Below are positions 24,685 through 60,909 of a DNA stretch of 64,000 bases, piece after piece (within the stretch, counting starts at the first letter, position 1; each line of letters starts with the position of its first letter). The stretch is from Azolla caroliniana. Lineage: Eukaryota; Plantae; Polypodiophyta. A program made the position numbers and the translations under genes. The DNA lies in contig JBHGNT010000090.1 of NCBI GenBank assembly GCA_043228905.1, positions 29,965 to 93,964 of the forward strand, given 5' to 3'. Below the pieces are notes generated by a model. It ran no database searches. It saw only the letters and a program-made list of their open reading frames with translations, and was not told the origin of the DNA.

Positions 24685-26601
24685 TCGAAACCAACGACAC
24701 AATACAATAAAAAGGAAATATCAACATTATTTTTTGTAGTAAGAGTATGTTGCCTTTATCCCTTGTTTTACCAATAATATTGATTTGTATGTAACAATCG
24801 GCAACGGTTTGGTTAAAAACACAATATTAAGGGGATTCAATATCAACGGAGAAAATATAAATAATTAATATGAAGGGAATATTAAGGGAAATAATGCCAT
24901 GATATTTGGTTTTAACAACTTTATGAGGCTTAATATCTCTAATCTAGAATATTACTCATCAAGAAACATGGCCATGTTATAATGTGTGGGGAAATATCCT
25001 TTATTAAATTATAATGGCTAATGTCTAGCGGGGTTGTAATATGAAAGGGACTTTGGAGAGTTTTAAACATATAAAAGGACAACAACTCTCATGTAAGGGG
25101 GGCTTTAGGTTACTGAACTATTGACTATCATTTGGTCTTGATTCTCTTCCTTTTAAATCCATTAAGAGCCACTCTCCTCCATGCAGCTTTCACATGCTAA
25201 CAACTAATTTAGACATAAATGTTTTTTTACCTCACAACTATTGATTTAATTTAGACAATTCACATGTCTATTATCTAGTAATTATCTATTTAGTTAAGAC
25301 AAACATATTTCTTGATTAGTGTAAAGATTAGGTGTGTATTAATGCTAAATTAACAATCCAAAACTCGAAGTTCCCGTTGGAAAAACTAGGTGTTGGGAAT
25401 ATGTCCCTCCAATGGGAGGAGCTGACTATTTGGGCCAAGAAGTGCCGATAGTCGAAGAATATGAGGAGCCAACTATTTAGGCCGAGTGCCGATGGTTGAA
25501 GAGTCGACTGCGAGAAAGTCGATTGTGAGAGTCAATTGGGCGAGTCGACAGAAAGGATATCCAAGTCGTAGACACGACCGACTAGTCGGACCAATTGGAC
25601 AGTCGACACTAGAGTCGGCTGATGGCTACTTATTATTATAGATAATAATAGTAGTGATGTGTAGTAGGGGCTACATTTGTAAATAGCCCATGTGATGTAT
25701 GAGTATAAATGCATCTAGGGAAAACGAAGAATATGAGAAAAAAAACTGTGTGTGCTGAGAAGTGTGTGTAGGTAGAACAAAAGAGTAAGAAAGGAGAGAG
25801 CGGCACCATAACTAAGTGAGCTTGGATGTCAAGAGCCATGTGCGGCTTTTACACTCGGTTTTAGAGTGTTGTAATGTGTGATATCACCTTGTATTTCTCT
25901 CTGTATAGTGGAATCTTTGTTCCCGTGGTTTCCCCCTATTTAGGGTTTCCACGTAAATCACAATGTAATGTGCATTTGTTGTTTCCACGTGTTGTTGTGT
26001 ATTTTCAGAGTTAATCTTTCTCACAGATTTGAGATTCGACTCTCAACAAACTTGTATTAGAGCTTGAGGTGCAAGTATGGAAGGAGCTGTGAGTGGCTTC
26101 CAAGGCATGATAGTTATAAACTCTCAGAACTATGCAGACTGGAAGATAAAGATGGAGGACCTTCTCATAGTCAAAGACCTGTACGAGCCGATTGACAAAG
26201 CAGAAATACCCACGGGGGGTATTAGAGTTGGAATGGAAACTTCTTAATAGAAAGGTGGTGGCTACCCTCCGATAGTGCGTCGATGTAAGTGTCCTTCAAC
26301 ATGTGGCGAACAACACAAATGCCAACGAGATGTGGCAGAAGCTGTCAGGCTTATATGAGATGAAGAACACCCTCAACAAAACATCCTTGATGAGAAAGAT
26401 CGTGAGATTAAAATACAGGGACTGGGAAAGCATAGTCGAGCACGTCAACACATTCATGGGGTATGTCACATTCTAGACTCGAACCTCTAACTTTTAACAC
26501 ACATAGTACATTGTGTTGTGTTAACCATATGAAAACTCTTGTGAACTATCCACATTTGATTGTAAACTTCTATATATTGTAGAGTCTAGTGTATCTAGTA
26601 C

Positions 26602-26616
26602 ATTCGAGAATATTCT
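26602..26616. promoter_or_regulatory. Heat-shock element (3 units) in the LTR of element B
   Basis: aTTCgaGAAtaTTCt, followed by further TTCtaGAA-type half-sites before TATAAAT at 26720-26726. Confidence 0.62.
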
Positions 26617-27279
26617 AGTCGTTAGTATATTCTAGAATTTTTCTATGGTATATTGTAAATGGGTATATTCTCGAGATGTTTCTTGAGTATATTCTAGAGA
26701 TATTCAATGTTGGAAATTGTATAAATACTTGTAACATCCTTGGTCCCTTTCAAGGGATTCAACACCAGTCATTGACACATCCATCTAGTATTCTCTTTTC
26801 GCCTCATCTTTGTCTCCTTGATCTTTATTTTTGTCTTCATGCCCTCATGTCTCTCACAACACCTAGAGTTCCTAGCCTCGTCACATCTAGCTTCAAGTTC
26901 ATCCGTCGCTTGTAGCCCCATCATCTGTGCTCTGTCCTAGTCTGCGCTTGGTGTGTACGTGGCAGTTTGAATCCCTTCCAACTGGGAGCACCACCCGTCT
27001 TCGTCATCGCCTTTGCTTCTAGAGTTACCATCATCACTGTCCTTGCTTCTGGAGTTACCGTCATCAACATCCTTGTCTTCGACGTCATCACTTTCAACAC
27101 CTCTTCGCCCAACCATCGTCGTCATCAACACTACTTGTGATCATTTTTAGGTATCATTTTGCATCAAGGTTTTGGTGAGGAGTGCTTTCAATCGCTTTCC
27201 TTACCTATTTCGGTGGGGGTCACAACCACTCACTTTCCTGGTGGGGATCGGATCATTGCTCGCTTGCACTGCATTTTCT

Positions 27280-27815
27280 GGTCGCTCACATCCGTTCCTG
27301 TTCTAGTTCTCAGTGAGGGCCGCATGGTCGCTCACGCCCGTTGGTGTTCATGTTCCAACTCTCGGCGAGGACCGACATGGTTTTTGATGCCCGTTGGTGT
27401 TCTTGTTCCCTGTGAGGACCGCACGTGGTCTCTCACGCTTGCTGGTATTCGTGGTCCAGTCTTCAGTGAGGACCGCATATGGTCGCTCACTCCAGCTATT
27501 GTTCATGTTCTAGATCTCGGCATGGACCGACATGGTCACTCATGCCTGCTATTGTTCATCTTCCAGTTCCCGGTAAGGACCACACATGGTCACTCACGCC
27601 TGTTGGTGGTCGTGTTCCAACTCTCAACGAGGAACAACATGGTCTCTCATGCCTATAAGTGTTCGTGTTCCCCGTGAGGACCACACATGGTCACTTACGC
27701 CTGTTGGTATTTGTGTTCTAGTTCCCGACGAGGACCGCACATGGTTGCTCATGCCCATTGGTGTTTGTGCTCCCCGTGAGGACCGCACATGGTCGCTCAT
27801 GTCTGTTGGTGTTCA
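27280..27815 (+). repeat. Degenerate tandem array, about 10 units of 47-54 bp, inside element B
   Basis: Core GAGGACCGCACATGGTCGCTCAYGCCYGTTGGTGTTC recurs at about 27315, 27367, 27414, 27468, 27523, 27575, 27629, 27676, 27730 and 27778. Confidence 0.85.
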
Positions 27816-28491
27816 ATACCTCGTCTCCTGGAAGGGTTACTCCTTGTCTAGGATTTACAAAATACTTTGGGGGTGATCTAAGATTTTCATCAACAGTATC
27901 CCCTTAAGCCAAGGACTGGTTTGGGAAGGCGGCGTAAGAGGGGGGATAATGTCACATTCTAGACTTGAACCTCTCACTTTTAACACACACAGTACATTGT
28001 GTTGTGTTAACCATATGGAAACTCTTGTGAACTGTCCACATTCGATTGTGAACTTCTATATATTGTAGAGTCTAGTGTATCTAGTACATTTGAGAATATT
28101 CTCATCATTAGTATATTCTAGAATTATTCTATGGTATATTCTAAACGGGTATATTCTCGAGATATTTCTCGAGTATATTCTAGAGATATTCAATCTCGGA
28201 AATTGTATAATGTAATATCCGTGGTTCCTTTCAAGGGATTCAACACTAGTCATTGACAAATCAATCTAGTATTCTCATTTCACCTCATCTTTGTCTCCTT
28301 GATCTTTATTTCTGTCTTCATGCCCTCATGTCTCTCACAACACCCAGAGTTCCTAGCCTCGTCACATCTAGCTCCAAGTTCATCCGTTGATTGTAGCCCC
28401 ATCATTGTCAGGAATAATACTAAAACAGAGAGAGAATTAGTACTAGAGAAGGGAAGTACTATTAGTACTAAGAGGACGAACTGCGTAAGAC

Positions 28492-28552
<61 letters not shown>

Positions 28553-28814
28553 ATGATAACAGATGATATATTATGTGAAGAGTAAGTACAAAATAACTAT
28601 GAGGCTTAAGACTGGCGTTGAACCAATTTGGTTTGAAATAATGCCTTGTGCCTCTTTTATAGTGTCCTCAGGAGTAGTCTTGAAGCTTCTAAAATGTTCT
28701 TGAGAAATCTGGAATATACAATAATTTTCTATAGTAAAACTTAAATGAAAATAATATTTTACGTATTACAATAGATAATGTAATGGTCAAGAGCTTGACC
28801 CATATAACATAAGG

Positions 28815-31800
28815 TTATGGGTTCGAGTCTTGCCATATCATGACACTATCCCCCCCCTTAAGACGATGAGTGTCATGAGTCGGCGTTGATTGTGGATCGG
28901 GTTTGTCCTGATACTTTTGCTGGAAATCAGCAAGAAGATCCTGAGCATTGGCAACAAACTCGGCGGGTTGCCAAGTACGTTCGCTCGGACTATAGCCGAG
29001 CCAATCGACCAAATAATAAAGTTTGTTACGAACAAACTTGGAGTCGAGGACGACAACAACTTCATACTCCAGGCCGGTGTCCAACTCAAGCGGGGGCGAC
29101 GGTGGTGTAACATGATCGGGAATAATGTTGGCCTAATAAGGTTCGAGAAGAGAACTATGGAAGACCGGATGTATCTGAAGGTGCGGAGGAAGATCAAGGC
29201 GGAACGTGACATCATTAATTTTGCTGGTAATACAGAAAGGACCGAGTTGTCGATAATCCAATTTGTCGCACGGTCTAGTTGTCTTGATGTGACGACGTAA
29301 GAGCTATACTCGATCTCCGATGGCCTCTCTAGATGACCCTCAACACGAGGATTGGTAGGTAGCTCCGGAGTGTCGATCACAGACCAGTGAGGATGAGAAC
29401 CGGTATAAGCGTAAATGGTGAGACTCAAGTCGAGGAGTGAATAGCGTTGTTATACGCAAACTCTGCAAAGTGGAGAATATCAGCCCAATCATCCGGTTGA
29501 TAACTCAAAAAATACCAAAGATATTAATCCAACGTTTGATTCGTTCGTTCCGCTTGCCCATCGGTTTGGGGATGGTAGCTGGAGGAGAGGTTGCAAGAGA
29601 CCTTGAGCATCTTGAAGAGATGCTTCCAAAATTTGGAGACGAATTGAGGTCCTCGGTCACTGATGATACTATCTGGGAGGCCATGATGTCGAAATACCTC
29701 ACGCATGACCAGGGTTGCGGTTTCCTCACTAGTGATGGCCTTAGTACAAGGCACAGAATGTGCCATCTTAGTATATCGATCGACGATGGTTAAGATAGCA
29801 TCGAAACCTTTTGAGACTGGAAGCTCTATGATAAAATCAAGACAAATGGACTGCCACGGCTTATTTGGAATTGGTAAGGATTCCAACAAGCCATATGGAT
29901 GATGTCGCGGCATTTTTGCTCGGCAACAAGCATCAAAGGTTCGAACATAGTCGTCACAAAACGTCGCATATGGGGCCACCAAAAGGATCGTTGAATGAGA
30001 TCCGACGTCTTAGTACTACCGAAATGTCCAGTTGTATGGGTGTCGTGACAACTTTGGACGATTTGAAGGTGACAGGAGCAATCAGGAACATACACGAGCT
30101 TTTTAAAGAATAATAAACCATCATGATATTTGAATTGTCGGTAGTCCATACTTGGTTGTTGAGACTGGGAATAGGATGCCCTAGAGGCATCAATTTGCTC
30201 TAGAATGGCTTAATCAAAACTATCTATCTTCAAGTTGGCACATATGGCATCGATAATCCGGGAATCCAGTGAAGTGTGAAAACTCTGCGTTGTGTGCAAA
30301 CGTGTTGGTCCCAAGATTACCTGCTTTGATTATCAAATGTTGGATCACCCGGACGAGGTGCAAGATATGAATGTCGCGATAGTGCATCTGCTTTTCCTCG
30401 CCCGAAATGTGATTTTGAAGTCAAAACGCGTGAGGAATTGGGCCCACCGAGCTTGCCGTCGATTTAGTACACGAGCGTTCTGGAAGTAAGCAAGATTTTT
30501 GTGATCACTGAAGACAATGACCTGATGAGGAAAGCCCTCTAAGAAGTGCCGCCATTGCACAAACGAATCCACGATGGCTAATAACTCCTTGTCATGTATC
30601 TCGTAGTTAATTTCCGCGGCATCAAATTTGCATGAGTGGAAAGCCACATGATGTAACTTTGCTTTATCTCCTTGTTGTGAAAGGATGCTACCGAGGGCGA
30701 AATCCGATGCATCGGCCTCCATGATGAATGGTTTGTTTGTATCCACATGAGCTAGAATAAGAGCTGATGTAAAGGCTTTCTTAAGATGCATAAAAGCCAT
30801 GTCCGCTTCATTGGACCAAAGAAATGATTGTCCCTTCTTGGTAAGATGTGTGAGAGGTAAAATAATCTTTGAGTAATCTTGTATAAACTTGCGGTAGAAG
30901 TTAGCAAATCCTAGGGAACATTGCACATCTCGTAACGAACGTGGAGTTTGCCACTCTAGCACAGTTTGGACTTTAGCTGGATCTATGGAGATGCCTTTTG
31001 AGAAGATGACGTAGGCTAGAAATTCCACTTGCTTGTAGTCAAAGCTACATTTTTCTAGTTTGGCATAAAGACCATGCTCTCATAGTTGTTTTAGTACTAA
31101 TAGTACATGAGAATCATGCTCTTCCTGGGCCTTCAAATAAATCAATAGATCATCCAGGTAGATGATCAAACAGATATCCAAGAGATGTCTGAATATATCA
31201 TTTGCCATGTGTTGGAAGACTCGAAGTACCCATATCGGGTGCGAAAAGCGGTCTTCCATTCGTCTCCTAGTAGGATCCGCACGAGGTTATATGCTCCTCG
31301 TAAGTCGATTTTTGTAAAAAACTTGGCACCATTTACACGTTCTAATAGAGTTGATATAAGGGGAAGAAGTGCATACCTATTCTGAATGGTGACCTTATTC
31401 AAGCTGCGGTAATCAACGACGTGACGAAGGGATCCATCTTTCTTTTTGACAAAGGAAATGGGTGCACCGGCCGGAGATTTCGAATGAAGAATAAACCCAC
31501 TTGCCAAATTCTCTTCTATGTAGGCTCGAAGGACTTCCAACTCGGCTGGTGACAAGTTGTAAATCGGTCCCCATGATGGTTTTGTTCCTGGTTGTAAATC
31601 GATGGGACAATCATAGGGACGACGATGAGGAAGAGTACCAACTCTGACCTTGTCAAATACATCAGCATAAGGATGATATTTCGCAGGAAGTTGAACTAAG
31701 GATTCCTTTTTAATATGTTGGAAGGATGTACTGATATTACAAATAGAAACCTTGACTCCTTCAAACCAAGGTAAATTTATGGAGCGAAATGGTCGAAACT

Positions 31801-32243
31801 CGATGAATAGATTCTCGAGGTTGTCGATACTGGACTTCTCTTGTTCTCTAATCTATGTCTGGATTATGTACTTCAAACCAAGGTAATCCCAAGACAATGG
31901 GATGCTCTGGACTACTAATTATATTAAATGATACCACACAGACAAAGCTATCTAGGACAACCTGAATGGGTTCTAACTCTTCTACGATATTCCCAGAAGC
32001 AATGGGACGACCATCAATGACTACTACAGATGTGGGGCAAGGAAGTTTTCTTAAGGATATCTGAGAAGCTTGGGCAAAATTGCGATCCATGAAACAGGAA
32101 TTGGCTCCGGAATCTAAAAGTGCTAAGACATGTATTGGAGGGGTACTTTTAGTACTAATAATGACTTGGGCTAAGAACACATTGCTAACTTGCTTAGAGG
32201 GAATGGAACCACTAATGGGCTGCACAGATCTAGGGTTGTCCAA
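28815..32243 (-). pseudogene. Chromovirus C pol: protease, RT, RNase H, integrase, chromodomain
   Basis: ALLDSGA; KIDLRGAYNL and IIYLDDLLI; EADASDFALG and YEIHDKELLA; HDTHTTGH, DFI, SDRGPQF and HPQTDGQAER; chromodomain EYEVVVVLD...YYLVDWLGYSPSERTWQP (29084-28815). Frameshifted. Confidence 0.93.
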
Positions 32244-32361
32244 CCAAATGACTCCTATTTTGGTTGAACTTAGTGTTTAACTCTTCCTCTAATTGACTAA
32301 GGATTTCAAATTTGTTTGAGATACTTGGGCTATCAATATTATTAATACTATTAGACACTCC

Positions 32362-32954
32362 TGTTGGGAAACAAGTCCCTCCGGATGGGAAGGGAGAAGC
32401 ACAGTGCCTCGGCCGAAACCGGATGAGTAGCACCCAGCTACGGAGAGTCGGATGGTGCAGGCCCGGTATGAACCGGATGAGGAGTACCCGGCTACGGAGA
32501 GCCGGATGGTGCAGGCCCGGTATGAACCGGATGAGGAGCACCCGGCTTCGGAGAGCCGGATGGTGCAGGCCCGGTATGAACCGGATGAGGAGCACCCGAC
32601 TATGGAGAGCCGGATGGTGCAGGCCCGGTATGAACCGGATGAGGAGCACCTGGCTTCGGAGAGCCGGATGGTGCAGGCCCGGTATGAACCGGATGAGGAG
32701 TACCTGGCTACGGAGAGCCGGATGGTGCAGGCCCGGTGTGAACCGGATGAGGAGTACCCGGCTACGGAGAGCCGGATGGTGCAGAACCAGTGAGAACCGG
32801 AGGAAGAGACATATTCGTAAATATGTTTCTGAGAGCCCATCGAGGCTATATTTGTAAATAGCCGAAAAGTCATATTAGTATAAATATGACTTAGGGTAAA
32901 CTTTTAGTTGTTGTTGTCATTTTCTGTTTTGCACGAGATTAGTGTGCGTAACTG

Positions 32955-33003
<49 letters not shown>

Positions 33004-33273
33004 GTTGTTGCCTCTGTTGTAACCGCCGCCTGTGGCGAAGATTTGTGAGCACGAGGTCGGTGCCTCAGTGAACTCACTGTTGTATATTCCTACATAGTGA
33101 CAGTTTGTAGCCTGTGGGCTGCCGTGGTTTTTCCCCTAGTTTGGGGTTTTCCACGTAAACCTCCTGTGTATTCTCTCCTTCTTTGTGTCGCGTTTTATTT
33201 CCCGTTTTCTGTGTATCATTCTAAGCTCGGTTGTGGCCGAGCGTTGCGCATAAGGAACGTTGGGTTCCCGTCA
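32362..33273 (+). mobile_element. Copia solo LTR (family of element F) inserted between gag and protease of C
   Basis: TGTTGGGA...CCCGTCA, homologous to 50577-51303; TSD ACTCC/ACTGC (1 mismatch). Confidence 0.9.
32415..32790 (+). repeat. 54 bp tandem repeat x7 in U3 of the solo LTR
   Basis: GAACCGGATGAGGAGYACCCGGCTWCGGAGAGCCGGATGGTGCAGGCCCGGTRT at 54 bp spacing. Confidence 0.93.
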
Positions 33274-33329
33274 ACTGCTAGGGGAATTGACTCGGGTTTA
33301 GTATAGGCTACGATTTGATTTACCTATCT

Positions 33330-34244
33330 TCTTGGCCTATGGGGACAGTTGATGGTGATATGCCCTGGTCCACCGCAATAAAGACATAATCGATTTGCAT
33401 GTCGTCTTTGCTTTTCTTCTTCCGATAACGGGCCACGTCGACGCATGGTGTCAATCTCCATCGGTGTCGGAGTATTTGCCTGAGATACATCTCATGCAAC
33501 CGGTTTAGCTGCGATTGAGGCATAGGTGGGCTCTGGCCTAGTCCGTGGCATTTGAAATTGACGTTCTGAACGTCATTCGAAAAGGCGGTTGTCGCATTGG
33601 ACCTCTCAACTTATTGCCTTTGTAAGAGATTTTGGTTCTTCGAGAAAGGTTAAAAGTAAATCTTTGACGTCGTTTTGCAGGTCGTAGTGGAACTACTCCA
33701 TTAGTGCTTGATCATCCTAGGGGATATCTGAGGTGAGTAGACAGAAATCCGTCGCGTAGGCAGAGGCTAGACGATCGCCTTGACGCAATCGTCAGATTTT
33801 GTTGATCGTCGTCCTGATGTTGTCGGTATCTCCAAAGCAGGCTTTAAACTCGCTAATAAAGTCTTCAAAGTTATTAAGCAAGGGAGATTGTTTTTCCAAA
33901 AGCGGAGTGAACCATGTCAAGGCTAAGCCGCTGAGCAACGTGCCTATTAGGCCTACTCGGGATGCATTAGTGGGGTATCGGGAAGGATGCATTTGCATGA
34001 CTAAGCGTACCTGATTAAGGAATCCTCTGAATTGTGAGCGTGTTCCATCAAATTTCACAGGAAGACCAATCTTGGGCTCTTTATGAAGTTCTTGGGGACT
34101 TGATCCTTGTTGTTGTAACGCTACGATGGTTGCTTCGAGTTGTTGTACGCGTAACGCTAACTCCCCATGTTGTTGTTGTGTTTGTTGTTTTTCTAAAGCA
34201 ATTTGTTGAAGATCCCCTAACAATCGTTGGTTTTCTTGTTCCAA
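33330..34244 (-). pseudogene. Chromovirus C gag (retrotransposon gag domain plus CCHC knuckle)
   Basis: EPKIGLPVKFDGTRSQFRGFLNQV...LLSGLALTWF; RLCLYCGGPGHITINCP at about 33340-33392; internal stops and frameshifts. Confidence 0.88.
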
Positions 34245-34475
34245 TGCAACGAATTTTTCTTTTAGACAATGTAGCTTGGAAAAAACGGATTGATATTTCT
34301 AGGTGCTAACAGTAGCCATAGTATTGAAAAAAGGGGTAAGAGGATGAGGGAAACCGAAAAGAAAACCAGAGGGAAATTTTGGTTCAAACTTTCAGGAATA
34401 GTACTAAAATAGAGAGAGAATTAATACTAGAGAAGGGAAGTACTATTAGTACTAAGAGGACGGACTGCGTAAGAC

Positions 34476-34530
<55 letters not shown>

Positions 34531-34658
34531 GTGATAATAGATGATATATTATGTGAAGAGTACGTACAAAATAGCTATGAGGCTTAAGACTGGCGTTGAA
34601 CCAATTTGGTTCGAAATAATGCCATATGCCTCTTATATAGTGTCCTCAGTAATAGTCT

Positions 34659-34678
34659 TGAAGCTTCTAGAATGTTCC
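34659..34678. promoter_or_regulatory. Heat-shock element (4 alternating nGAAn units) in the 5' LTR of chromovirus C
   Basis: tGAAgcTTCtaGAAtgTTCc, about 20 bp upstream of the minus-strand TATATAA (34633-34639). Confidence 0.7.
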
Positions 34679-35453
34679 AGAGAAATCTGGAATATACAAT
34701 AATTTTCTATAGTAAAACTTAAATGAAAAATAGTAATATTCTACGTATTACAATAGATAATGTAATGGTCAAGAGCTTGACCCATATAACATAAGGTTAT
34801 GGGTTCGAGTCTTGCCATATCATGACAATCATCTGTGCTCCATCCTAGTCCGCCCTTGGTGTGTCCGTGATAGGTACTTTCCGCAACCAAGTTTCCCCTT
34901 GAAGATGCAATGCAGGCCATCTTGCTGTTGTGTACCCTACTGGACAACTGGGAGAATCTAGTGGTGACTCTTAGCACCTCGTGTCAAGAAGAAAACTTGT
35001 CTCTACAAGCCGTAAAGACAAGCACCTTGAACGAGGAGACCAAAAGGAAGGACAAGGGTGTCCTAGTCCAGTCGGAGACAAATTTGACTCAACACACCGA
35101 CAGAGGAAGAAATCGGCAAAGGAGCCCACAAAGAAGGGAGAAGTACCAAGTCCGGAGGCAAGCTAACATGTTTTTATTGTGGAAAACCTGAATACTTCCA
35201 AAAGGATTGCCGACACATGATAAAGGATAAAGGTGTCGGTAATGGCGTCGAACCCAAGAAGATTCCAGAAGAAAAGGGCACTTCGGCCATTGCTACGAGC
35301 AATGAAGAACTCTTGTTCATTTGTGAACAAGCAAGACTTGCAAACCTTGCAAGCAAAGAATGCACTTGGGTGATCGACTCTGGTGCATCTTTCCATATAA
35401 CTCCGTCGAGAGAGTACTTCTCGACTTACATAGTCGGGGATCATGGTTTTGTA

Positions 35454-46000: not shown

Positions 46001-47931
46001 GCTGATTAGCTCTAGTTCCTCTCTCTCTCTCTATTCTTTTTGTCCTCTTCTCTCTAATCTAGAGGAGGTCAAGAGTTGGCAGTCCTATTGCATATATCGT
46101 TCACTTGTGTTGTGTTGAGAATCAAGCTCAACCTAGTGTGACGTGTGAACACACCCTTTGAGAATCTATGATCACTAAAAGGTCAATAATCATCTCTAGT
46201 GCGATGTGTTTTCTCTTCTCTCATCTCTTTCCTCTCACACATACACATAACACACATCTCTTCTGCTGCACAAGAATCATATCCGATTCTTTACATGTCG
46301 TAACGGGCGCGTCGATTGCACTACATTAAGTTCTTAACTTCTACTTTTTTATATATTTAATATATTCCTTAACATTCATAATTACATTGTAGTTTATAAT
46401 CGTGGAATGTTGTACTTCATTATGCCACCATTTGTCACCATGTTTGTCAGACAATGCCATAATGAACCCAAAATGAAAAGAATCATAAAAAATGCTATGT
46501 CTTCTTTTGCCCTCTAATGATCAAGAGCATATGATACAAATTGTTAGTGAGGGGAGGTTGCACAATGATCATATAGATCAACATGGTGGTCATTCTACCG
46601 TGGTAGTGTCTATGAATGTTAGGACTATTGTGGCTAGTTGTGGTGGTATCAAGGTGGCGTAGAGTGGTCACTGTGTTAAGGGTTGATACCATCAAAGGGT
46701 GTATTTATCTATTGATTAAGGGATTGTTGAGCTTCCTTGTCTGAGCTTATACAATGCCTAGATTTGTTGTAGACCTCATACACTATAGCAAGTTGCTCAA
46801 CTCGAACATGTTGGATAAGAGAATAACAATTGAAAGCAATATATCATGAAATTGTAAGCACGATGTGAGCAAGAATGATTAAAGTATGAGAATGAAAAAT
46901 ATGTTATCCCAAAAAAGCCTTACATTTTAAAAGAGGGTCAATCAATCCAAGACCACCCTCTTCCATTGGAGTTATAACAACTTTCCAAAACACTTGACGT
47001 TGACATATGAACAATATTTAGATCCCCAAAGGAAATTCCTAATAAGCCATTGTACAGTTTGTTGAGAATCGACTCGGCCACAACCAGTTGATACGTATGT
47101 GAATGTGGGTGCAAAGAGCGTGAATGATAGTACAAAGATAAACGATCTCGTGAAGATTTTCGGCAACAGTATGAAAATCGCGTGGAACAAGGGAAATCGA
47201 GAAGATGCAATATGCACACGTATGAAAGGAGTGATGGTTAGGCGTGTATGTTAACACGTGAATGTGCACGTGTAATGTGTGTTTAGGTGTTCATTACAGA
47301 AATATATAAAATAAGCCAAACGCATACAATGAGGTGCAAGGAAAGGTTTGAACCTTACACCTCTAAGACAAGAGGCAATTGACATACCATTAGACTAGGT
47401 TATTTCCTTTAAAACTTATTTTCTTCATTGTACTTTTCACACGAACTGCTGGTACATGAGAGCTTGGATGAGGTACATGGTCATCATGCATTGCATGTGA
47501 TGCATGAGCGCCAAATGGCAATCATGCATTGCATGCATTTCATGCATTGTATGCATGTACTACACCCTCACATGCACATATGCATGGGGGCATCTATATA
47601 AGAAGGAGAGGAAGGGAAAGGAAATCAAGTAATGTATGCAAAGTAATCCTAGTTATTTCATTGGCAATGTGTCTTGTATCTCAACTTTGAAGTCAAAAGT
47701 TCAAACCGGGAGTTGGGATTCTCATCCATATCTATCTTTAATACTTCTCGCAAGTGCTAATCCTTCCACCGTTCCATTGTCTTCAACGATCCTTTCGCTC
47801 CTCCATCACCACTTGCGGATAGAGGCCGGTGCTTGTCTGCGCACGTGTAACGCGCACATCGCAACGTTTGGCACATGTGTAGCGTGCTTCACGACATCTT
47901 TGTGGTGCGATAAATATTTTCACAATCTCTT

Positions 47932-47980
<49 letters not shown>

Positions 47981-50576
47981 AGTCAACCCACACAAGCATC
48001 TTCGACAACAAGAAGAACCCAATTGTAAACCTAAACAACGGTCGACTCCTTACAAGCACAAGTCACCCGATCCATCCTCCTTGGTCAAAGACCCCGGTGG
48101 TCCCCTTCGACCGACCCGCAGGCGCGGATTTCCGCGACATTAATTGGTGAACCCGACATGAAGAACGGTAAGGGAGGATGGCCGGAACTTCAAGTGCTAG
48201 AGACTCTAATGATAGTCTAGCACAAGCAATGGCGAGGATGATGGACCAAATGCTTCAAGAGAGAGACACCGTCGCAGGCCTTGACGTTGCCAGCGATAGG
48301 ATCGTGGATGCCAACGGATGCTTTGATGGTAGAGATGTGACACGATACCTTAAAACCTACAAAACAGAAATGCGGAAAAAGGGTATTTCTATGGCAAGAC
48401 AAGTGGCAAGCTTCTCAAGGATTGTAACTTCAAGTCTTTACTCTCGGGTCCTAGAGCTACAAGATGCCAATCCTGAATGGTCATTTTTCGAACAAAGTTT
48501 ACTTGAAGAATATGGGTTTGGTGACTCATCTCAAATGACGAAGAAAGATTTAATGGACTGGGTGGAGTCTTCTAACAAAGAGTTGAGTGCGAGTGCGACG
48601 CTCCACGAGTTCGAGCAAAGATTTGATTGTTTGCTTGCACTTGACAAAACGATTCTTGATAGCAAGGTGCTCCTATTTATCAAATCAGTAGATGAGAAAG
48701 ATCCGGAAGAGATCTTGGGCTACTATTAGAGAATGATGAAGGCCTCATTTCTGATTGGGCAGTAGTGAAGAGAGCATGTGGACGTTTTGATAAGCGTCAA
48801 CAATGGGACAACGAGACAAGATCGAATGTTGCAGCTCAAATTGGCCGGCAAGCTCACAACGTGAGACAAGAACCACAAGCCCAAAGACCGAGGGATGATG
48901 AAGTGGCTCAACCCACAGATGGAGCCAGAATGGATGAACTTGTAGACATGCTTCGAGAGATGAGAATTTCTCAAATTAGAAAGGACGAAACTCAAAGTTT
49001 TCCAGGTCGTCACTTGGACTTTCCCCATAGGTGTATTTGGTGTGACTCCTTGGAACACTAGCGGAGAGATTGCTCAGAATTCCAAAATGCCCTCCGACGA
49101 GATATCATTTATCTATCCAACAATCAGATTCACTCCTCGGTGACACAACGTCCTCTCAACACCAACTTTGGCCGAGGAGGTATGAAGAAGTTGATGGAAG
49201 AAATGGAAGAAAACAAAGTGAAAGTATTTACTATTCCTCATCAGCTGGAATTCGGGCTGGACACGAGACGAGAGCCCAAGAATCTCAAGTAGGAGAATTT
49301 TGGCCAATCATATTGAATCAAGTCGGATAAGGGAAGCTCTGCATGAACGAGGCACTCAAAGCATAACGAAGAGTCCAAGAAATGATGAGATGGGAGGACC
49401 CTGTGGAGGAGAAGTCTAGCTTCGTCGAGGCCATGTGTCAAAACTACGACGTCCTAGTTGAAGAGAAACGAAAAAGACCAGATGACCAATCAGGCCCTTC
49501 AAAGAAATATGACACAAGAGAAGTTGTTCGAAGAAGGGAGGAATCATCACCGCCCCGAATGATAACCAAAAGAGGGAAGGAAAGAATCAGACTAGCATTC
49601 AAACTACGCTCGGCAATAGAGCAATCCACCGACCTTAAGCGTGTGATGGAAGAAAGAATCCTAGATAGCCGAATCGAGTTCACACTACGAGAGGTCTTAG
49701 GAATTGCAAAGAAAGAATTTCACGATGTCATCATTGACTTGATAAAAAGGAAGAGACTAATGACAAGTGAAGAAGGGACTAGACCGACAAATGTCTCGAC
49801 GAGCGCTATCACAATAGAAGGTCTCGAAACTGAACAAGAATTTGTCGATAGCCAGTTTGCAAGGCCACATTGGGTTAGGGCTACTACCGAGACACCGGTG
49901 CGGATGGGAGATTTGAAAGATTCAGTGTTGGCGCTCATTGATCATGGCTTGGAGATCAACCTCATATCTCTTGACTTCTATCGAAAGGGTTGTTGGCCCA
50001 TTAATACTATGCATGGGTGGAAGATTCGAGCGGCAAGCAGGGCGATAGAAGAGCTTCATGGGGCCTGCCCTAATGTTAAGGTAACTATTGGTGACGTTGA
50101 GCATGATAAACACTTTTTTGTGCAGGAATCGGCGTCACATCTTGTCATCCTTGGCGAGCGTTACATAACAACATCCCGGATGGAGACAAAGGTACTTGAT
50201 AATGGTTCAGCATATGCGCGGATACGAAGTCAAGATGGGACAAGCTCAGTTCAATTCCTCACGGTACGACCGAACCATGAAAGAAGTAGGCATAGCTTAG
50301 GGAAAGAAGATAGGGAGGATTTTTAATTCGGGCTATTAGGGAGAGGGACAACAATAGTCCGGGACATCTAACTATGTCCCCAATTCAGTGTAATAAAAGT
50401 TGTCACCCCATTAATGAAAATGAAGTCTTGTTTTCTGAAAATGGGATGTGTAAATTTAACAACATGAATAGAGGAGATATTAAAATAGGAATCCTAGAGG
50501 AAGAATTTAGAGAAATCGGGATTATAAGCGAGGAAGAGCCAATAAAGGGGTACATGGAGATGATATCATTTGATGA

Positions 50577-53500
50577 TGTTGGGAGACAGGTCCCTCCGGA
50601 TGGGAAGGGAGAAGAACAGTGCCGACGAACAATCTCGGCCGAGGCCGAAACCGGATGAGGAGTACCCGGCTACGGAGAGCCGGATGGTGCAGACCTGATG
50701 TGAACCGGATGAGGAGTACCCGGCTACGAAGAGCCGGATGGTGCAGACTCGGTGTGAACCGGATGAGGAGTACCCGGCTACGGAGAGCAGACCCGGAGTG
50801 AACCGGATGAGGAGTACCCGGCTATGGAGAGCCGGATGGTGCAGACCCGGTGTGAACCGGAGGAAGAGACATATTCGTAAATATGTTTCTGAGAGCCCAT
50901 CGAGGCTATATTTGTAAATAGCTGAAAAGTCATATTAGTATAAATGTTGTTGTTATTTTTCTTGTTGGTGTAAGAAGAAGAGAGAGCACGTAACAGTGTA
51001 CAGAGAGAGAGAGAGAGAGAAAGAGGTCGCTGCCTCTGTTGTAACCGCCGCCTGTGGCGAAGATTGTGAGTACGAGGTCGTTGCCTCCGTGAACTCACTG
51101 CTTTTGTACATTCCAACATAGTGATAGTTTGCAGCCTGTGGGCTACCGTGGTTTTTTCCTCTTTGGGGTTTTTCCACGTAAACATTCTGTGTACCTTTTT
51201 TCTCTCCTTTGTGTCGCGTGCATTTGTTTCCCGTTTTTCTGTGTATGATCCTAAGCTCGGTTGTGGCCGAGTGTTGCGCATAAGGAGCCGTCAGTTCCCG
51301 TCAAGTGGTATCAGAGTCGAAACGACACAAAAATATGGACGAATCGTTTGGCGGCATGTTCAAGCTTACCAGCTCCAACTATTCGGTATGGAAGTCGAAG
51401 ATGAGGGACATGCTCGTGGTTAAAGACCTCTGGCTGCCGGTTCAGTTCGGGGACAAGAGACCGGACAAAATCGACGCCACGATATGGGAGGTGATGCACA
51501 TGAAGACAACGGTGTACATACGGTGCTTCATCGACATGAGCCTGTACAACAACTTCAATGAAGAGAGCAAGGCTCATGAGCTCTGGGAGAAGATCGGCAT
51601 AATGTTTCAAAACAAAAATGTTGTTAATCAGGTTTCGGTATTCCGGAAGCTAGTAAGACTCCGATACCAAGATGGCTCCAGCATGGCAGAGCATATGAAT
51701 GCCTTCCAGGGGTTGATACACCAGGCAACGTCATTGGAAGTACCTCTCGCCGATGAGGTACTAGCGCTACTCCTGCTCGGTTCCCTCCCGGATAGCTGGG
51801 AGACGTTGGTTGTCACTTTGGGCAACGCCGGACCGGAAGGAAAACGGTTATCCCTAGCAAGAGTAAAGTCGAGCTTGCTAGATGAGGAGGCGCGTCGGAA
51901 AGATAAAGATACGAGCTCCGACTCCAAAGCGCTCCTTACCGAATCGGAACGCGGAAGACATAGAAACCGTAGTCCCCAGAACCGGGAGAAGTCGGGGACA
52001 CGATCAAAGTCAAGGGGGAGGCCCACTTGCTTTTATTGCGGCAAGCCGGGTCACTTCCAAAAGAACTGTCGGCATTTCCGTAAAGACAAGGAAACCGACG
52101 GTACCGATTCGAAGCGAACCCCGGACCGAAACGGTAAAGACCGGAAGGGAACGACAACAATCGCGGCAAGTGAAGAAGAGTTGATGCTCATCACCGAGGA
52201 GAGTGAGATAAACCTTGCTGGCGACGAGATGACCTGGGTGGTAGACTCCGGAGCATCGTTCCACCTTACCCCGGACCGGAAATGCTTCTCATCCTACTCA
52301 GTCGGTGACCACGGCTGTGTCCGGATGGGGAATGAAGGTACATGCCGAATTGTCAGCATAGGAGACGTGTGGCTGTCAACACCAACCGGATGCAAGTTGC
52401 TGCTGAAGGATGTCCGACACGTTCCGGAGGTTCGTCTGAACTTGATATCAGCCAGTCGGCTAGATGATGAAGGCTACACGGGTAGCATCCGGAACGGTGT
52501 CATGAAGTTCAGCAAAGGGAGCCTGATTGTGGCTCGGGCCCGGAAGGTCAACACATTGTACCTGATGAATGCCCGGTTATGCCCGGAAGAAGTGAACGTG
52601 GCATCCGACACTGCTAGTGAGCTGTGGCACAAGAGGCTATGTCATATGAGCAAGAAGGGGATGAAGAGGCTTGCAGACGACAACCTCATTCCAGTAAAGA
52701 ACGTGCACTTAGAGAAGTGTACTGATTGTCTGGCCAGTAAGCAGAACCGGACCTCCTTCTGACCAAGGCCACCATTGAGACGTAATGCACCACTAGAGTT
52801 GGTGCATACGGATGTGTGTCAAGTAGACACGAAGTCACATGCCGGAGCGCAGTACTTCGTGACGTTCATAGATGACCACAGCCGGAAGTTGTGGGCCACA
52901 CCGTTGAAGACGAAGGATCAGGTGTTATCCGTCTTCAAAGAGCTCCACGCGAGAGTGGAAAGAGAAACTGGCCGGAAGCTGAAGGCGGTACGAGGAGACA
53001 ACGGAGGAGAATACCGGGGGCAGTTCGAGGAGTACTGCCGCTCGAAGGGAGTCCGGCTCGAATTTACCGTGCCGAAGACGCCGGAACTAAACGGACTGGC
53101 CGAGAGGATGAACCGGACCATAATGGAGAGGGTCCGGAGTATGCTAGCGCATGCAAAACTACCCAAGAAGTTTTGGGCTGAGGCATTGTCGACGGCGACA
53201 TACGTGATAAACAGATCACCCTCAGTACCCTTGGACGGAGACACGCCACAGAGAGTATGGACCGGTAAGGAAGTGTCCTACCGGCATCTAAAGGTGTTCG
53301 GGTGTCTCGCGTACGTGCATGTAGCAAAGGACCGGAGAGGAAAGTTAGACCCAAAGACCCGGCCATGCATATTCCTCGGTTACGGTGACGATGAGTTCGG
53401 CTACCAAGTGTGGGACCTGGTCGACAAGAAGGTATTCCGGAGTCGAGATATTATCTTCATGAAGGACAAGACGCTCGCCGACTAGGAGTCGGAGAAGAAG

Positions 53501-55882
53501 ATAATGAACTCCGAGTCGACCGGTAAGGATCGACTCTACGATGAGCAGACCCAACCGGCGAGAGACCGGTTAGCACTCGAAGAACCAGCCGGATACGGTG
53601 AGGATACGGCAGAAGAAGAAGTAGAGGAAGCTGAGACCGGAACCGGCCTAGACCCCGAATCGGATTCGGATGAAGAGCAAATGGAGGAGCCGACTACCGA
53701 AGCCCAAAGACGGACATATCCTCTCAGAGAGAGAAGGGCCCCCTGGAGATTTCCGGATGCAGAGCATGTTCTGCTGACCGATGAGGGGGAGCCGGAAAGC
53801 TTCAAAGAAGCGAAGGATGACACCCACAGCCGAAAATGGTTAAGTGCCATGCAGGACGAGATGGATTCCCTGCATGAGAACCATACGTACGAATTGGTGG
53901 AGTTGCCGAAAGGAAAGCGAGCACTCCGAAACAAGTGGGTGTACAAGTTGAAACCGGGAGATGCCGGAAACCCCCCGAGATACAAAGCCAGGATCGTAGT
54001 GAAGGGGTTCCAGCAGAAGAAGGGCGTGGACTTCGACGAGATATTTGCCCCGGTAGTAAAGATGACCTCCATTCGGACGGTGCTGAGTATAGCGGCAAGC
54101 ATGGATCTTGAGGTAGAGCAGCTGGACGTGAAGACGGCATTCCTTCACGGCGACCTCGAAGAGGAGATCTACATGCAGCAACCGGAAGGATTTGTGGAGA
54201 AAGGGAAGGAGCACCTAGTATGCCGGCTGAAGAAGAGCCTGTACGGACTAATGCAGGCTCCCTGACAATGGTACCGGAAGTTCGATTCCTTCATGACCGA
54301 TCAAGAGTACCACAAGACGCAGGCCGATCACTGCGTGTTTGTGAAGAAGTACGAAGGAGGCGACTTCTTGATACTCCTCCTGTACGTGGATGACATGTTG
54401 ATCGTCGGACGTGACCAAGTCAAAATACGGATGCTGAAGAAGGCTCTCAACCGGACCTTCTCAATGAAAGACTTGGGTCTGGCAAGACAGATGCTGGGGA
54501 TGCATATCATTCGGGACCGTTCATAGAAGCAATTATGGTTGTCACAGGAGAAGTACGTGACAAAGGTGCTTCACCGGTTCAACATGTCAGAAGCAAAACC
54601 GGTCGGATCGACACTTCCGGCAAACTGCAAGCTATCCAGTAAGCAAAGCCCGAAGACGAAAGCAGAGAAGGAGGATATGATGAAGATTCCATATGCCTCT
54701 GCCATCGGGAGCTTGATGTATGCAATGGTTTGTACCCGACCGGACATAGGATACGCAGTCGGAGTGGTGAGCCGGTTTATGAGCAATCTTGGCAAGGAGT
54801 ACTAGAACGCGGTCAAATGGATACTCCGGTATTTGAAGGGCACTTCAAATATGTGTCTCCGATTCGGCTTCGGAAAACCTCAACTGGACGGTTTCACCGA
54901 TTCGGACATGTCGGCTGATGTGGATACCAGCCGGTCTACATCCGGGTATGTAATGACATATGCAGGGGGAGTTGTTTCGTGGCAGTCGAGGCTGCAGAAG
55001 ACGGTTGCATTGTCGACCACAGAGGCGGAGTACATGGCGGCTGTGGAAGCCAGCAAGGAAATATTATGGATGAAGGACTTCATCGGAGAGCTCGGTATCC
55101 GGCAAGAGGAATACCGACTCTATTGCGACAGTCAAAGTGCCATCCACCTTGCTAAGAATGCGGCCTACCATTCTCGGACGAAGCACATCCAGCGAAGATA
55201 TCACTGGATCCGGGAAAGAGTAGATGACCAGGAGTTCGCGCTGACGAAGATCCACACGGCCGAGAACGGGTCAGATATGCTGACCAAAGTTCTGATACCC
55301 GACAAGCTGGATGCATGCCGGAAGCAGATCAGATTGATAAGACACCCCATGCCGGAGTGAAGGGGGAGTTTGTTGGGAGACAGGTCCCTCCGGATGGGAA
55401 GGGAGAAGAATAGTGAAGGGTGTGAACCGGAGGAAGAGACATATTCGTAAATATGTTTCTGAGAGCCCATCGAGGCTATATTTGTAAATAGCCGAAAAGT
55501 CATATTAGTATAAATATGACTTAGGGCAAATATGTGTATAATGTTGTTATTTTTCTTGTTGGTGTAAGAAGAAGAGAGAGCACGTAACAGTGTACAGAGA
55601 GAGAGAGAGAGAGAGAAAGAGGTCGCTGCCTCTGTTGTAACCGCCGCCTGTGGCGAAGATTGTGAGTATGAGGTCGTTGCCTCCGTGAACTCACTGCTTT
55701 TGTACATTCCAACATAGTGATAGTTTGCAGCCTGTGGGCTGCCGTGGTTTTTTCCTCTTTGGGGTTTTTCCAGGTAAACATTGTGTCGCGTGTCGCGTGC
55801 ATTTGTTTCCCGTTTTTCTGTGTATGATCCTAAGCTCGGTTGTGGCCGAGCATTGTGCATAAGGAGCCTTCAGTTCCCGTCA
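50577..55882 (+). mobile_element. Ty1/Copia element F inserted in E
   Basis: LTRs 50577-51303 (727 bp) and 55371-55882 (512 bp); TSD GATGA; PBS TGGTATCAGAG at 51306; PPT GAAGGGGGAG. Confidence 0.96.
51335..55360 (+). pseudogene. Copia F gag-pol in one reading frame with five premature stops
   Basis: ORF pieces starting at 51305, 52775, 53504, 54293, 54539 and 54833 share one frame; stops at 52760, 53483, 54263, 54524 and 54803; all Copia domains are recognisable. Confidence 0.93.
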
Positions 55883-58800: not shown

Positions 58801-59763
58801 GAAGAAGGAGATTGGGTATTGGTCTACGACAACAGCCTAGACAACCAACACAGGACGACAAGGAAGTTCGCAAGAAGGTGGTTTGGACCATATGTGGTGA
58901 TGAGTGCCAACGACAACGCCAGCTACCACCTCGCGGAGCTAGACGGATCAAGGTTGGCCATACCAATTGCAAGGAAAAGAGTAAAGATATTCAAGAAAAG
59001 ACAAGATGAGGGTCCTAACCTAGATGACCTCAACAATGAAGATAGTACGACGGAACCCACAAATGTGAGCGAGGTTGATGAGGACATGGAGGAAATTGAT
59101 CGATCACCGTAACCGAAATCTCACACTCACTTCTTGGCACGTACCGGAGGACGTGAGGTTTGGTGGGGGTGGATAGTTGAGATACAAGACACATTGCCAA
59201 TGAGATAACTAGGATTTATTAATTATTATTGATTGCATATATTGCTTGATTTCCTTTCCCTTCCTCTCCTTCTTATATAGATGCCCCCATGCATATGTGC
59301 ATGTGAGGGTGTAGTACATGCATACAATGCATGAAATGCATGCAATGCATGATTGCCATTTGGCGCTCATGCATCACATGCAATGCATGATGACCATGTA
59401 CCTCATCCAAGCTCTCATGTACCAGCAGTTCGTGTGAAAAGTACAATGAAGAAAATAAGTTTTAAAGGAAATAATCTAGTCTAATGGTATGTCAATTGCC
59501 TCCAATCTTAGAGGTGTAAGGTTCAAACCCTGCCTTGCACCTCATTGTATGTGTTTGACTTACTTTATATATTTCTGTAATGAACACCTAAACACACATT
59601 ACACATGCACATTCATGTGTTAACATACACGTCTAACCATCACTCCTTTCATACGTGTGCATATTGCATCTTCTCGATTTCCCTCGTTCCACACGATTTT
59701 CATACTGTTGCCGAAAATCTTCACGATCTTTGTGGTGCGGTAAATATTTTCACAATCTCTTTA

Positions 59764-59794
<31 letters not shown>

Positions 59795-60909
59795 AGTCAA
59801 CCCACACAAGCATCTTTGACAACAAGAACGACCCGATTGTAAACCTAAACAAAGGTCGACTCCTTACAAGCACAAGTCACCCGATCCATCCTCCTTGGTC
59901 AAAGACCCCGGTGGTCCTGTTCGACCAACCCGCAAGCGCGGATTTCCATGACAACGAGAACAAAAATACAGAAATACAAATGCAAGGATTTTACGTGGAA
60001 AACCCGGAAAGGGAAAAACCATGTGAAGTTCACAAACTCCAAACAGAACCACTATGATGGGAGGAATACAACAAGAAGCGTCAAGGCAACAACCTTGAGC
60101 TCTTCTTCATCACAGATAGTTATGGAGTTACTCACACACTCTCCCACTCTAGTTACACAAGCAACTACACCTTGTAACTTGTTCCACAATGATAATTCAC
60201 AATTATCATAACTACTTGCCCTAACTATATTTATACTCATATACACTATATACGCTATTTACAAATATAGCCCACTAAGGACACATATTGAGGTTATTTA
60301 CAATTATAGCCTCGAGTCGGCTTTGACCGATTCGGCTATTAGCCGAATAGATTATTATCCGATTTTCGGTTAGTTGATTTTTTGGCCTCGACTAAGTTCG
60401 CCATCGACCAATTCGGCTATTCTTCCCATCCGGAGGGACCTGTTTTCTCAACACTTGTGATAAAGCCGAACGTGAGCACAACCAAGCCGACAAAATGTAC
60501 CACATGAAAGCAAGCAATACTTGATTGTCAACAACCACCTTACCAGGCCGGGAGCCATGGAAAAACATTTTAAGGCAGAGAATGATTAAGGTGCCTTCTA
60601 CAGGTGGCAATTGGAAAGATAGTATTAGATGGTGGTTTTTAAGAGATTTTACTCATTCCATTGATATTTTTCGGCATGATAAAGTTTTTATGGGTATAAT
60701 GAAGGCATGGTTTGATTGGAAGCATAATTTAGTCCAATCTCTACCATCATTTATGGAGGAATGGTTGTGTCAACCCCTCGTAATGAACCCACTATTTCTA
60801 AAAGAGGAGAGAATAATGTTAGATAAAAGAACTAGGTTGAAGTGGGCTTATTTTGATAGAGGAGAAGGTGGGTTAGTAAGGAGTTCATTGTCTTTTTCTT
60901 CTTCGACAG

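Follow-up and report, generated by a model that had tools for sequence, protein, structure and literature searches.

Two lineages of Gypsy retrotransposons, both present in the window (the whole analyzed stretch of 64,000 nucleotides of Azolla caroliniana DNA), keep a tRNA-type pair of A-box and B-box back to front in the U3 of their LTRs. We assign a probability of about 45% to the reading that this module is a selected docking site for TFIIIC and TFIIIB, protecting the Pol II promoter of the LTR. TFIIIC would bind the B-box and TFIIIB would load upstream of the A-box, where an AT-rich stretch lies on the inner side, beside the Pol II promoter. The docked factors would hold this neighboring promoter open and screen it from silent chromatin, and any Pol III transcript would run away from the Pol II start. 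Since it points in the wrong direction, the module cannot be a promoter for genomic RNA. It may have originated from a captured tRNA or SINE head, and selection would act on the master copies that replicate, not on those already inserted.

Element C, a Tcn1-like chromovirus with broken gag-pol and a 5-bp target duplication, lies on the minus strand (28406–34827) and is inserted within the 3′ LTR of element B. Its LTRs (5′, 34390–34827; 3′, 28406–28845) are 93% identical. The 3′ LTR carries an A-box (28776–28786, 10.4 bits) and, 15 nt from the outer LTR end, a B-box (28820–28830, 16.4 bits), both on the plus strand and antisense to C. The module of the 5′ LTR (34758–34812, plus strand, 26.8 bits; A-box 34758–34768, B-box 34802–34812) faces out of C, and a TATA-like box of the predicted Pol II promoter is located approx. 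115 nt inward of its A-box (34632–34640, minus strand). Element B (26464–34872, plus strand) is non-coding and about 2 kb long without the C insertion, which splits its 3′ LTR (27950–28405 and 34828–34872; 5′ LTR, 26464–26964). The B-box in the 5′ LTR of B (26475–26485, minus strand, 16.4 bits) is identical to that of C, and a second copy is found in the 3′ LTR (27961–27971, minus strand). The initial annotation had added a weak A-box to it; the B-box stands, but the A-box has negative scores (−1.5 and −2.0 bits, at a spacing of 40 nt, with a remnant near 26525–26533), and element B is in effect B-box only. In families of this kind, TFIIIC alone would bind, as at the ETC/COC sites of yeasts.

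C and B belong to one self-priming, Tcn1-like chromovirus lineage. Consequently, the LTRs first counted as three different types represent two independent lineages. In the lineage of C and B, a self-priming site behind the 5′ LTR, complementary over 9–13 nt to the R region, replaces the tRNA primer-binding site. In C, this site (34377–34389, minus strand) matches no tRNA 3′ end and complements the R region of the element's own LTR, where the predicted self-primer directly follows the TATA-like box (34596–34606, minus strand); the complement measures 9 nt in the window copy and 12–13 nt in intact relatives. In B, a predicted self-primer of 11 nt (26752–26762, plus strand) complements 26967–26977. 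Relatives of C are 5.7 kb long with intact gag and pol, and one of them (L151) has a chromodomain integrase (PF00385 and PF24626). In a match list of the RT, fungi and vertebrates supply most of the named matches, with values of up to 66% across the full region, above those from seed plants (45–52%).

The B-box could also be a motif used when the element is reverse-transcribed or integrated, which only happens to resemble a Pol III element; it could then be an attachment site, imitate the self-priming site or form an RNA structure in U3. In chromoviruses it is found near the U3 end, and the primer-binding site of C is similar to its sense strand. However, the primers of B and C differ while their B-boxes are identical, and the interval between B-box and LTR end is not fixed, ranging from 5 to 52 nt in chromoviruses and from roughly 65 to 470 nt in the second lineage. 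Further, tRNA-primed elements carry the module too, and an A-box at tRNA spacing would be unexplained. We consider a motif of this type very improbable.

The second lineage is represented by element E (47146–59953, plus strand, with a Copia insertion inside), a non-chromovirus Gypsy element which encodes RT and integrase. E is likely Phygy-like, an assignment made by described features: its target-side flanks read NCGN in 10 of 12 cases and NTGN in the other two, and a preference for NCGN targets is a feature of Phygy (PMC6317226). RT-RNase H of this lineage is about 25% identical to that of the C lineage. The parts of E are a 5′ LTR (47146–48139), a PBS (48145–48157) and a 3′ LTR (about 59175–59953) whose U3 is inverted and partly deleted; judged by other copies of the family, the 5′ LTR has the native orientation. 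The U3 of the 5′ LTR contains the antisense module (47344–47397, minus strand, 24.9 bits; A-box 47387–47397, B-box 47344–47354), and a T4 run follows 33 nt past the B-box. In the 3′ LTR, the module (59477–59530, 28.5 bits) is on the plus strand due to the inversion of that segment. Unlike that of C, the module of E is not terminal but lies 200–250 nt inside U3. All motif coordinates initially given for C, B and E check, and the modules are antisense to their elements as claimed, with C on the minus strand and B and E on the plus strand.

A TATA-like box of the E 5′ LTR (47594–47602, plus strand), 180–200 nt from the antisense A-box, is situated between two modules. The second one, weaker and in sense orientation (47654–47708, plus strand, 14.9 bits), lies approx. 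60 nt past the TATA-like box and had escaped the first reading. It scores 9.9–15.8 bits in 13 of 19 copies of E, with none scored in the other 6, and 24.6–28.9 bits in sister families. Among Phygy-like elements, we found the antisense U3 module in 12 LTR types, three of which have it duplicated. Five of the 12 types carry a sense copy 59–129 nt past the TATA-like box, so that outward-facing modules bracket the promoter; the sense copies meet T-runs within the LTR. The weakness of the sense copy in E itself, together with its absence from 6 of the 12 LTR types, speaks against a docking site.

The tRNA likeness of the modules was assessed with a weight matrix built solely from 12 tRNAs of the host genome, which themselves score 22.1–33.5 bits. 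C (26.8 bits) and E (24.9 and 28.5 bits) provide the top four module matches of the window, and full A+B modules score within the range of real tRNA genes. In the window, five matches reach at least 20 bits, versus 0.2 in 30 shuffles. Genome-wide, one strict A+B pattern gave 2894 matches versus 2 in the control, and there are 3845 terminal matches of a dominant LTR lineage; the boxes in U3 invariably face outward. A survey of three 200-kb regions, picked near known C or E copies and not at random, yielded 28 modules compared to 1 and 1 in two shuffles. The A-to-B spacing is 34 nt in C, 33 nt in E and 40 nt in B, with host tRNAs mostly at 32–34 nt. Recurrence and a tRNA-gene layout, both proposed in the initial annotation, are borne out far more widely than first seen, at a motif frequency well above shuffled controls.

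A functional tRNA gene was rejected, as the stems are unpaired and neither ARAGORN nor Rfam made a call: ARAGORN detected no tRNA genes in the window and none in 390 loci (1.89 Mb), and Rfam returned no match for the module and no 5S match. Acceptor, anticodon and T stems form 4/7, 2/5 and 4/5 pairs in C and 1/7, 2/5 and 4/5 in E, compared to mostly 7/7, 5/5 and 5/5 in host tRNAs; the cloverleaf is lost in the modules and the boxes are kept. When spacers were compared with about 14 tRNA types, a single one of 16, that of family H against tRNA-Arg-TCT, scored above all 100 shuffles. This is suggestive only, with tRNA-Arg as a candidate donor for the Phygy side. The genome also contains a SINE-like repeat whose head is of the same kind.

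Alternatively, the module may be an active Pol III promoter with a short antisense RNA as the selected product, which could serve copy-number control, act as a decoy in the small-RNA pathway or fold into a structure spanning the U3/PPT junction. The A+B scores in the tRNA gene range, the retained AT-rich and CAA elements upstream and the T4 run of E are all consistent with transcription. A transcript of the C 3′ LTR copy would stop 85 nt past the B-box, across the PPT, and the C module has a long hairpin (z = −5.0 on the module strand, −3.6 on the other). However, most families do not share the hairpin, and spacers are only about 40–70% alike between families. The C 5′ LTR is without a terminator of its own and would give a different RNA at each insertion site, and B-type families have lost the A-box yet retain the B-box. 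Selection for an antisense RNA is unlikely in our view. A shared RNA hairpin as a general feature was also rejected, as it is strong only in C and in the SINE-like repeat.

The spread of the module was examined in a box-independent sample, comprising the first 50 of 1293 PPT-anchored chromovirus LTR starts and 200 control windows. An antisense B-box of at least 9 bits was present in 23 of the 50 starts, in sense orientation in 3, and in 2 of the 200 controls; full modules of at least 17 bits occurred in 14/50 versus 0/200. Module-positive clusters amount to 11 of 18 in this sample, and the module is absent from three chromovirus clusters (14–16). Families bearing it include some whose integrase is about 50% identical to that of C. 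Over 13 clusters, which were anchored on their best-scoring members, making the comparison partly circular, column identity is 0.78 for the B-box and 0.62 for the A-box, where TGG is nearly invariant, and 0.47–0.56 for spacer and flanks. The A-to-B distance is 31–36 nt across chromovirus families and 39–41 nt in B-type families. Across C subfamilies, an AT-rich stretch and CAA are retained upstream of the A-box; comparable elements are described for plant tRNA genes (PMC7544208). The A-boxes of seven young C-lineage elements vary mostly where host tRNAs also vary. Outside the two lineages, 12 bits were reached by 0/16 Copia LTRs (11 clusters) and 0/3 Athila-like LTRs. In a metagenome scan, true tRNA genes made up most of the matches, alongside an abundant tRNA-like repeat that is unrelated; 3 of 80 loci examined were C-lineage LTRs, which does not settle the host range.

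Conservation of the boxes relative to neighboring U3, as expected by the initial annotation, is seen across families but not within them, where the B-box is not clearly above context-matched U3 (ratios of 0.48 in C, 1.02 in B and 1.17 in E; L016, L030, L062, L063, L064, L068, L071 and L090 were left out as duplicates, partial or inverted). As within-family conservation gauges decay after insertion, cross-family tests were used. This near-neutral decay, the many families which have lost the module and the SINE-like repeat with a similar head would also suit a neutral relic, i.e., an old tRNA or SINE fragment hitch-hiking in the LTR. On the other hand, boxes and spacing persist where flanks are unalignable and integrases are about 50% identical, and the mutable CpG of the B-box is intact in 7/7 young intact C-lineage elements. 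The second lineage, moreover, repeats orientation and region, with duplications. A relic of this kind seems quite improbable. A landing pad for tRNA-targeting elements is not supported either, given that none of 86 C copies and none of 36 E copies is broken in the 60 nt preceding the A-box. Of 24 F-type alignments, six stop in this interval; among the five examined, four are diverged subfamilies and one (L335) is an unexplained break.

In genomic copies, the decay proxy for the B-box CpG was 6/37 versus 79/246 in C (p = 0.055) and 14/36 versus 145/485 in B (p = 0.26). Most inserted copies are, therefore, not obviously protected from methylation. Without lasting protection, the module might be an enhancer-like input that does not block silencing, with TFIIIB supplying TBP and a nucleosome-free region beside the TATA-like box and thereby raising Pol II output. 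This would agree with TFIIIB being predicted to sit on the inner side and with the distances between A-box and TATA-like box in C and E. It would also agree with U3 composition, which suggests two promoter designs: 26/30 Trp-primed elements are without the module, and U3 is GC-rich in Trp-primed LTRs lacking it (46–59% GC) and AT-rich in those bearing it (30–40% GC). A second module downstream of the TATA-like box, however, is not explained by such an input. In yeast, moreover, active tRNA genes often repress adjacent Pol II promoters. We regard an enhancer-like input as rather improbable.

Taken together, a docking site for TFIIIC and TFIIIB is favored by the box enrichment in the box-independent sample, the deep spread across families, the fixed spacing combined with a free end distance, the intact B-box CpG of young elements, the retained AT-rich and CAA elements, the same placement in a second lineage, the absence from Copia and Athila-like LTRs and the loss of the cloverleaf as in Helenus. 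For yeast, TFIIIC/TFIIIB are described as having barrier activity (PMC9540200, PMC4370569). RLG1, a chromovirus of Physcomitrium, lies in heterochromatic islands and yet is transcribed without stress (PMC7466625). Against a docking site stand the near-neutral conservation of the B-box within families, the decay of its CpG in inserted copies, and the dispensability of the module, which Trp-primed elements and chromovirus clusters can lack. Further, Pol II must traverse the module in the 3′ LTR, and a complex bound there, or a transcript in antisense, would be a cost. Heterochromatic tRNA gene clusters of Arabidopsis are themselves methylated and silent (PMC7544208) and, thus, A- and B-boxes are no guarantee of open chromatin in plants.

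A bolder reading, which we regard as doubtful, is that autonomous LTR retrotransposons acquired tRNA-gene promoters on two occasions and that these serve as portable insulators, with outward-facing TFIIIC/TFIIIB sites flanking the Pol II promoter. If true, this would be a cis-acting anti-silencing device built from host Pol III machinery, by which heterochromatin-targeting elements stay transcribable, with both sides of the promoter flanked in some Phygy-like families. Thousands of TFIIIC sites would have been seeded, probably including RLG1 of Physcomitrium patens, and Pol III factors would confront thousands of decoy sites in such genomes. The modules touch the open question of how abundant retrotransposons remain transcribed inside heterochromatin, and little is known about tRNA-type boxes as chromatin barriers in plants. 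Should RLG1 share the module, as it may, a single B-box mutation in this gene-targetable moss would address both questions.

Among known systems, Tcn1 chromoviruses (RLG1 of P. patens) share with C the chromodomain, self-priming and fungal and vertebrate relatives (PMC6317226, PMC7466625, PMC2864245), and Phygy elements share with E the NCGN target preference (PMC6317226); A- or B-boxes in LTRs of either are not described in the available text of these papers. Yeast tDNA barriers and ETC/COC sites resemble the modules in their boxes, proposed action and B-box-only variants (PMC4370569, PMC9540200), but are fixed chromosomal sites with measured occupancy, whereas the modules are mobile, number in the thousands and have a predicted occupancy. 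The available text of a review on plant barriers names TFIIIC and tRNA barriers for yeast and animals only. In Cassandra TRIMs, a Pol III internal promoter has likewise been captured in a plant LTR (PMC10886601; 10.1101/2023.07.14.548913; PMC12786077). It is, however, of type 1 and derived from 5S, takes the place of the Pol II promoter and drives transcription of the element, which is non-autonomous.

The initial annotation did not recognize the module as described and missed the closest described system, Helenus (Kojima, 2024). Its novelty claim holds insofar as antisense A/B modules in autonomous plant LTRs are unreported in the open-access main texts searched. In Helenus, or TRIMp3, both LTRs contain sequence derived from a tRNA, with conservation centered on boxes A and B and mostly no functional tRNA, and a tRNA or SINE head is proposed as origin; Selaginella is the only plant case given, and "not a few" Repbase LTRs are said to resemble part of a tRNA, in an analysis limited to TRIMs (PMC10886601). 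Both systems have tRNA-type boxes in an LTR with the cloverleaf lost, and B-type families keep box B only. Helenus elements, however, are non-coding TRIMs of 311–1263 bp whose promoter is proposed to yield the template RNA (PMC10886601). In contrast, carriers of the present module include intact autonomous elements of 5.7 kb and E with its RT and integrase, the TATA-like box is kept, the module in U3 runs antisense, and two or three outward-facing modules occur in some LTRs.

The A/B-box modules are located among nested LTR retrotransposons. Element B (26464-34872, plus strand) is non-coding, and its 3' LTR is interrupted by element C (28406-34827, minus strand), which has LTRs that are 93% identical and a 5-bp target duplication. 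Element E (47146-59953, plus strand) codes for reverse transcriptase (RT) and integrase and carries a Copia insertion. All motifs reported in the initial annotation were found where it had placed them, and their antisense orientation holds for B, C and native E, in the last case because its 5' LTR has the same start as the other family copies. Of the module claimed for B, the B-box is the same as in C, but the A-box is not above background. Scored with a weight matrix trained on 12 host-assembly tRNAs, which themselves span 22.1-33.5 bits, the modules of C (26.8 bits) and E (24.9 and 28.5 bits) fall within the range of the training tRNAs and are the four best matches in the window. The motif also exceeds its frequency in shuffled controls, with five window matches at 20 bits or more vs. 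0.2 in 30 shuffles; genome-wide, a terminal B-box pattern yielded 3845 matches (control, 99) and an A+B pattern 2894 (control, 2). The module in these LTRs is real. Its A-to-B spacing, 34 nt in C and 33 nt in E, is like that of most host tRNAs. No tRNA gene calls were present at the modules in the window or the sampled loci, the cloverleaf stems are unpaired, and the surviving layout is promoter-like only (A-box, variable-loop-like AGGT, B-box).

Spacer and B-box of C (28788-28832) form a long hairpin (z=-5.0), kept with paired changes in relatives such as loci L153 and L339. The hairpin at the equivalent position of B is a different one. At 28777-28780, most depth in sequencing run X1 (probably DNA) represents an A-box closer to the canonical form than that of the window. 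A 27-bit module near 3109 of locus L049 is surrounded by AT-rich sequence, and no LTR was seen around it.

B and C belong to one lineage and E to a second. The primer site of E is presumably that of tRNA-Trp, and its RT-RNase H is about 25% identical to that of C. Target flanks of the E family read NCGN in 10/12 copies, a mark of Phygy in the available text of PMC6317226. C and B are without a tRNA primer site and self-priming: the bases behind the 5' LTR complement 9-13 nt just past the TATA box. The integrase of an intact C relative has a chromodomain, and the named relatives of the C-lineage RT are mostly fungal and vertebrate; this profile is that of Tcn1, described in the same text from mosses and club-mosses (PMC6317226). 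These element profiles point to a moss as the likely host. Within the C lineage, one very young subfamily (L151, L095-L120) has identical LTRs, and its intact 1194-aa pol frames are numerous across the chromosomes. LTRs 71-89% identical to C with the full antisense module occur in metagenome records L386, L422 and L443. The two LTRs of E (47146-47690, 59175-59726) match a second contig (L062, L064; G000:C77) with scores equal to the window copies, which suggests that the E region was assembled twice. The U3 of the 3' LTR (59175-59726) is inverted, about 200 nt shorter and partly deleted; an internal inverted copy of the LTR's own start, near 47887, is a likely recombination site.

The initial annotation had made conservation of the B-box relative to U3 a test of the module. 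Within families, the B-box is not clearly above context-matched U3 (ratios 0.48, 1.02 and 1.17 in 28, 30 and 24 copies). Its CpG had decayed in 6/37 copies of C vs. 79/246 at other CpGs (p=0.055), and in 14/36 copies of B vs. 145/485. It is kept in 7/7 young intact C-lineage elements. Since within-family decay and conservation measure what happens after insertion, we examined a box-independent sample, i.e., LTR starts chosen by polypurine tract alone (first 50 of 1293 matches scored), with 200 windows further inside as controls. At a cutoff of 9 bits, an antisense B-box was present in 23/50 LTR starts vs. 2/200 controls (Fisher p about 1e-16), and a sense one in 3/50; full modules reaching 17 bits were found in 14/50 vs. 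0/200 (p about 3e-11). The copies are not independent. Eleven of 18 clusters were positive, several others had a worn version, and clusters 14-16 of this sample were without the module; cluster 7 probably does not represent an LTR. Across module-positive families, whose integrases are as little as about 50% identical to that of C, the box columns are more alike (identity over 13 clusters 0.78 for the B-box, 0.62 for the A-box and 0.47-0.56 for spacer and flanks, a partly circular measure). Spacing is 31-36 nt (39-41 where the A-box is worn), and the distance to the LTR end varies from 5 to 52 nt. A neutral relic is improbable, and the module is likely some form of Pol III-factor element under selection.

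In the Phygy-like lineage, 12 LTR types carry the antisense U3 module when all loci are pooled, doubled in three. Among 30 elements (L341-L370) chosen by Trp-type primer site alone, the antisense module was strong in 3, weak in 1 and absent in 26; U3 regions with it are AT-rich (30-40% GC), often with ATGCAT repeats, and those without it GC- and CpG-rich (46-59% GC). In five of the 12 types a sense module follows 59-129 nt after the TATA box, so that a module on either side of the Pol II promoter faces away from it; one type has a sense match before TATA and six lack any sense module. Four sense modules scored 24.6, 28.9, 26.7 and 18.9 bits, and that of E itself is weak (9.9-15.8 bits in 13/19 copies). 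The bracket of E comprises the antisense module at 47344-47397, TATA at 47594-47602 and the sense module at 47654-47708. No match at 12 bits was found in 16 Copia LTRs (11 clusters) or 3 Athila-like LTRs.

Regarding origin, the spacer of one of 16 families tested resembles host tRNA-Arg beyond all 100 shuffles. Two copies of a repeat of about 320-350 bp (L337 4732-5049, L338 4707-5057), with no LTR seen, have a strong A/B module about 12 nt from their start; the repeat is a putative SINE with a tRNA head and may represent the donor type. Tandem tRNA-Lys, tRNA-Ile and tRNA-Arg gene arrays with mutated copies (L201-L209, L218-L220) are similar to the clustered tRNA genes of Arabidopsis. In one Gypsy family a tRNA-like end replaces the polypurine tract (G000:C16 about 14857455-14867274, C18 about 14551367-14561176); the LTRs of these elements are without an A/B module.

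Selected boxes and spacing together with a lost cloverleaf characterize a type 2 Pol III promoter. Pointing outward, the U3 module is unable to transcribe the element. A functional antisense RNA made from it is unlikely, as families with a B-box only fit protein binding better than a transcript; an enhancer-like input ranks between this and a neutral relic, and it is very doubtful that the module serves reverse transcription or integration. The test of a landing-pad role gave no support for it. We favor over these four rivals, at a probability of roughly 0.45, a predicted docking site protecting the promoter, because of the boxes and their spacing, the outward geometry, the B-box-only families, yeast TFIIIC/TFIIIB sites that limit silent chromatin according to the accessible parts of PMC9540200 and PMC4370569, and the moss chromovirus RLG1, whose young copies are described in part of PMC7466625 as transcribed despite their location in heterochromatic islands. 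Pol III factors docking at the module would protect the LTR's Pol II promoter, with TFIIIB predicted from the geometry to sit on the AT-rich stretch on the module's inner side, adjoining that promoter; the stretch is conserved. This putative mechanism is plausible. However, the CpG decays in a near-neutral way, the module is missing from many families, tRNA clusters that are methylated are silent in Arabidopsis (PMC7544208, available text), and Pol II has to cross the 3' LTR copy, all of which argue against promoter protection.

Our literature search found no report of autonomous plant LTRs with antisense or bracketing modules, a result that supplements and subscription papers could alter; the available description of the SM-Tcn1 LTR names only TATA and CAAT boxes (PMC2864245). 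In the accessible text on Helenus, tRNA-derived A/B boxes lie in LTRs of short non-coding TRIMs and are proposed to make template RNA (PMC10886601), as the 5S promoter of Cassandra does in the portions available (PMC12786077, bioRxiv 10.1101/2023.07.14.548913). Judged by these texts, the elements described here differ from both in size, coding capacity and orientation. Thus, while A/B boxes were already known from Helenus TRIMs, their antisense and bracketing arrangement in autonomous plant LTRs appears to be new.
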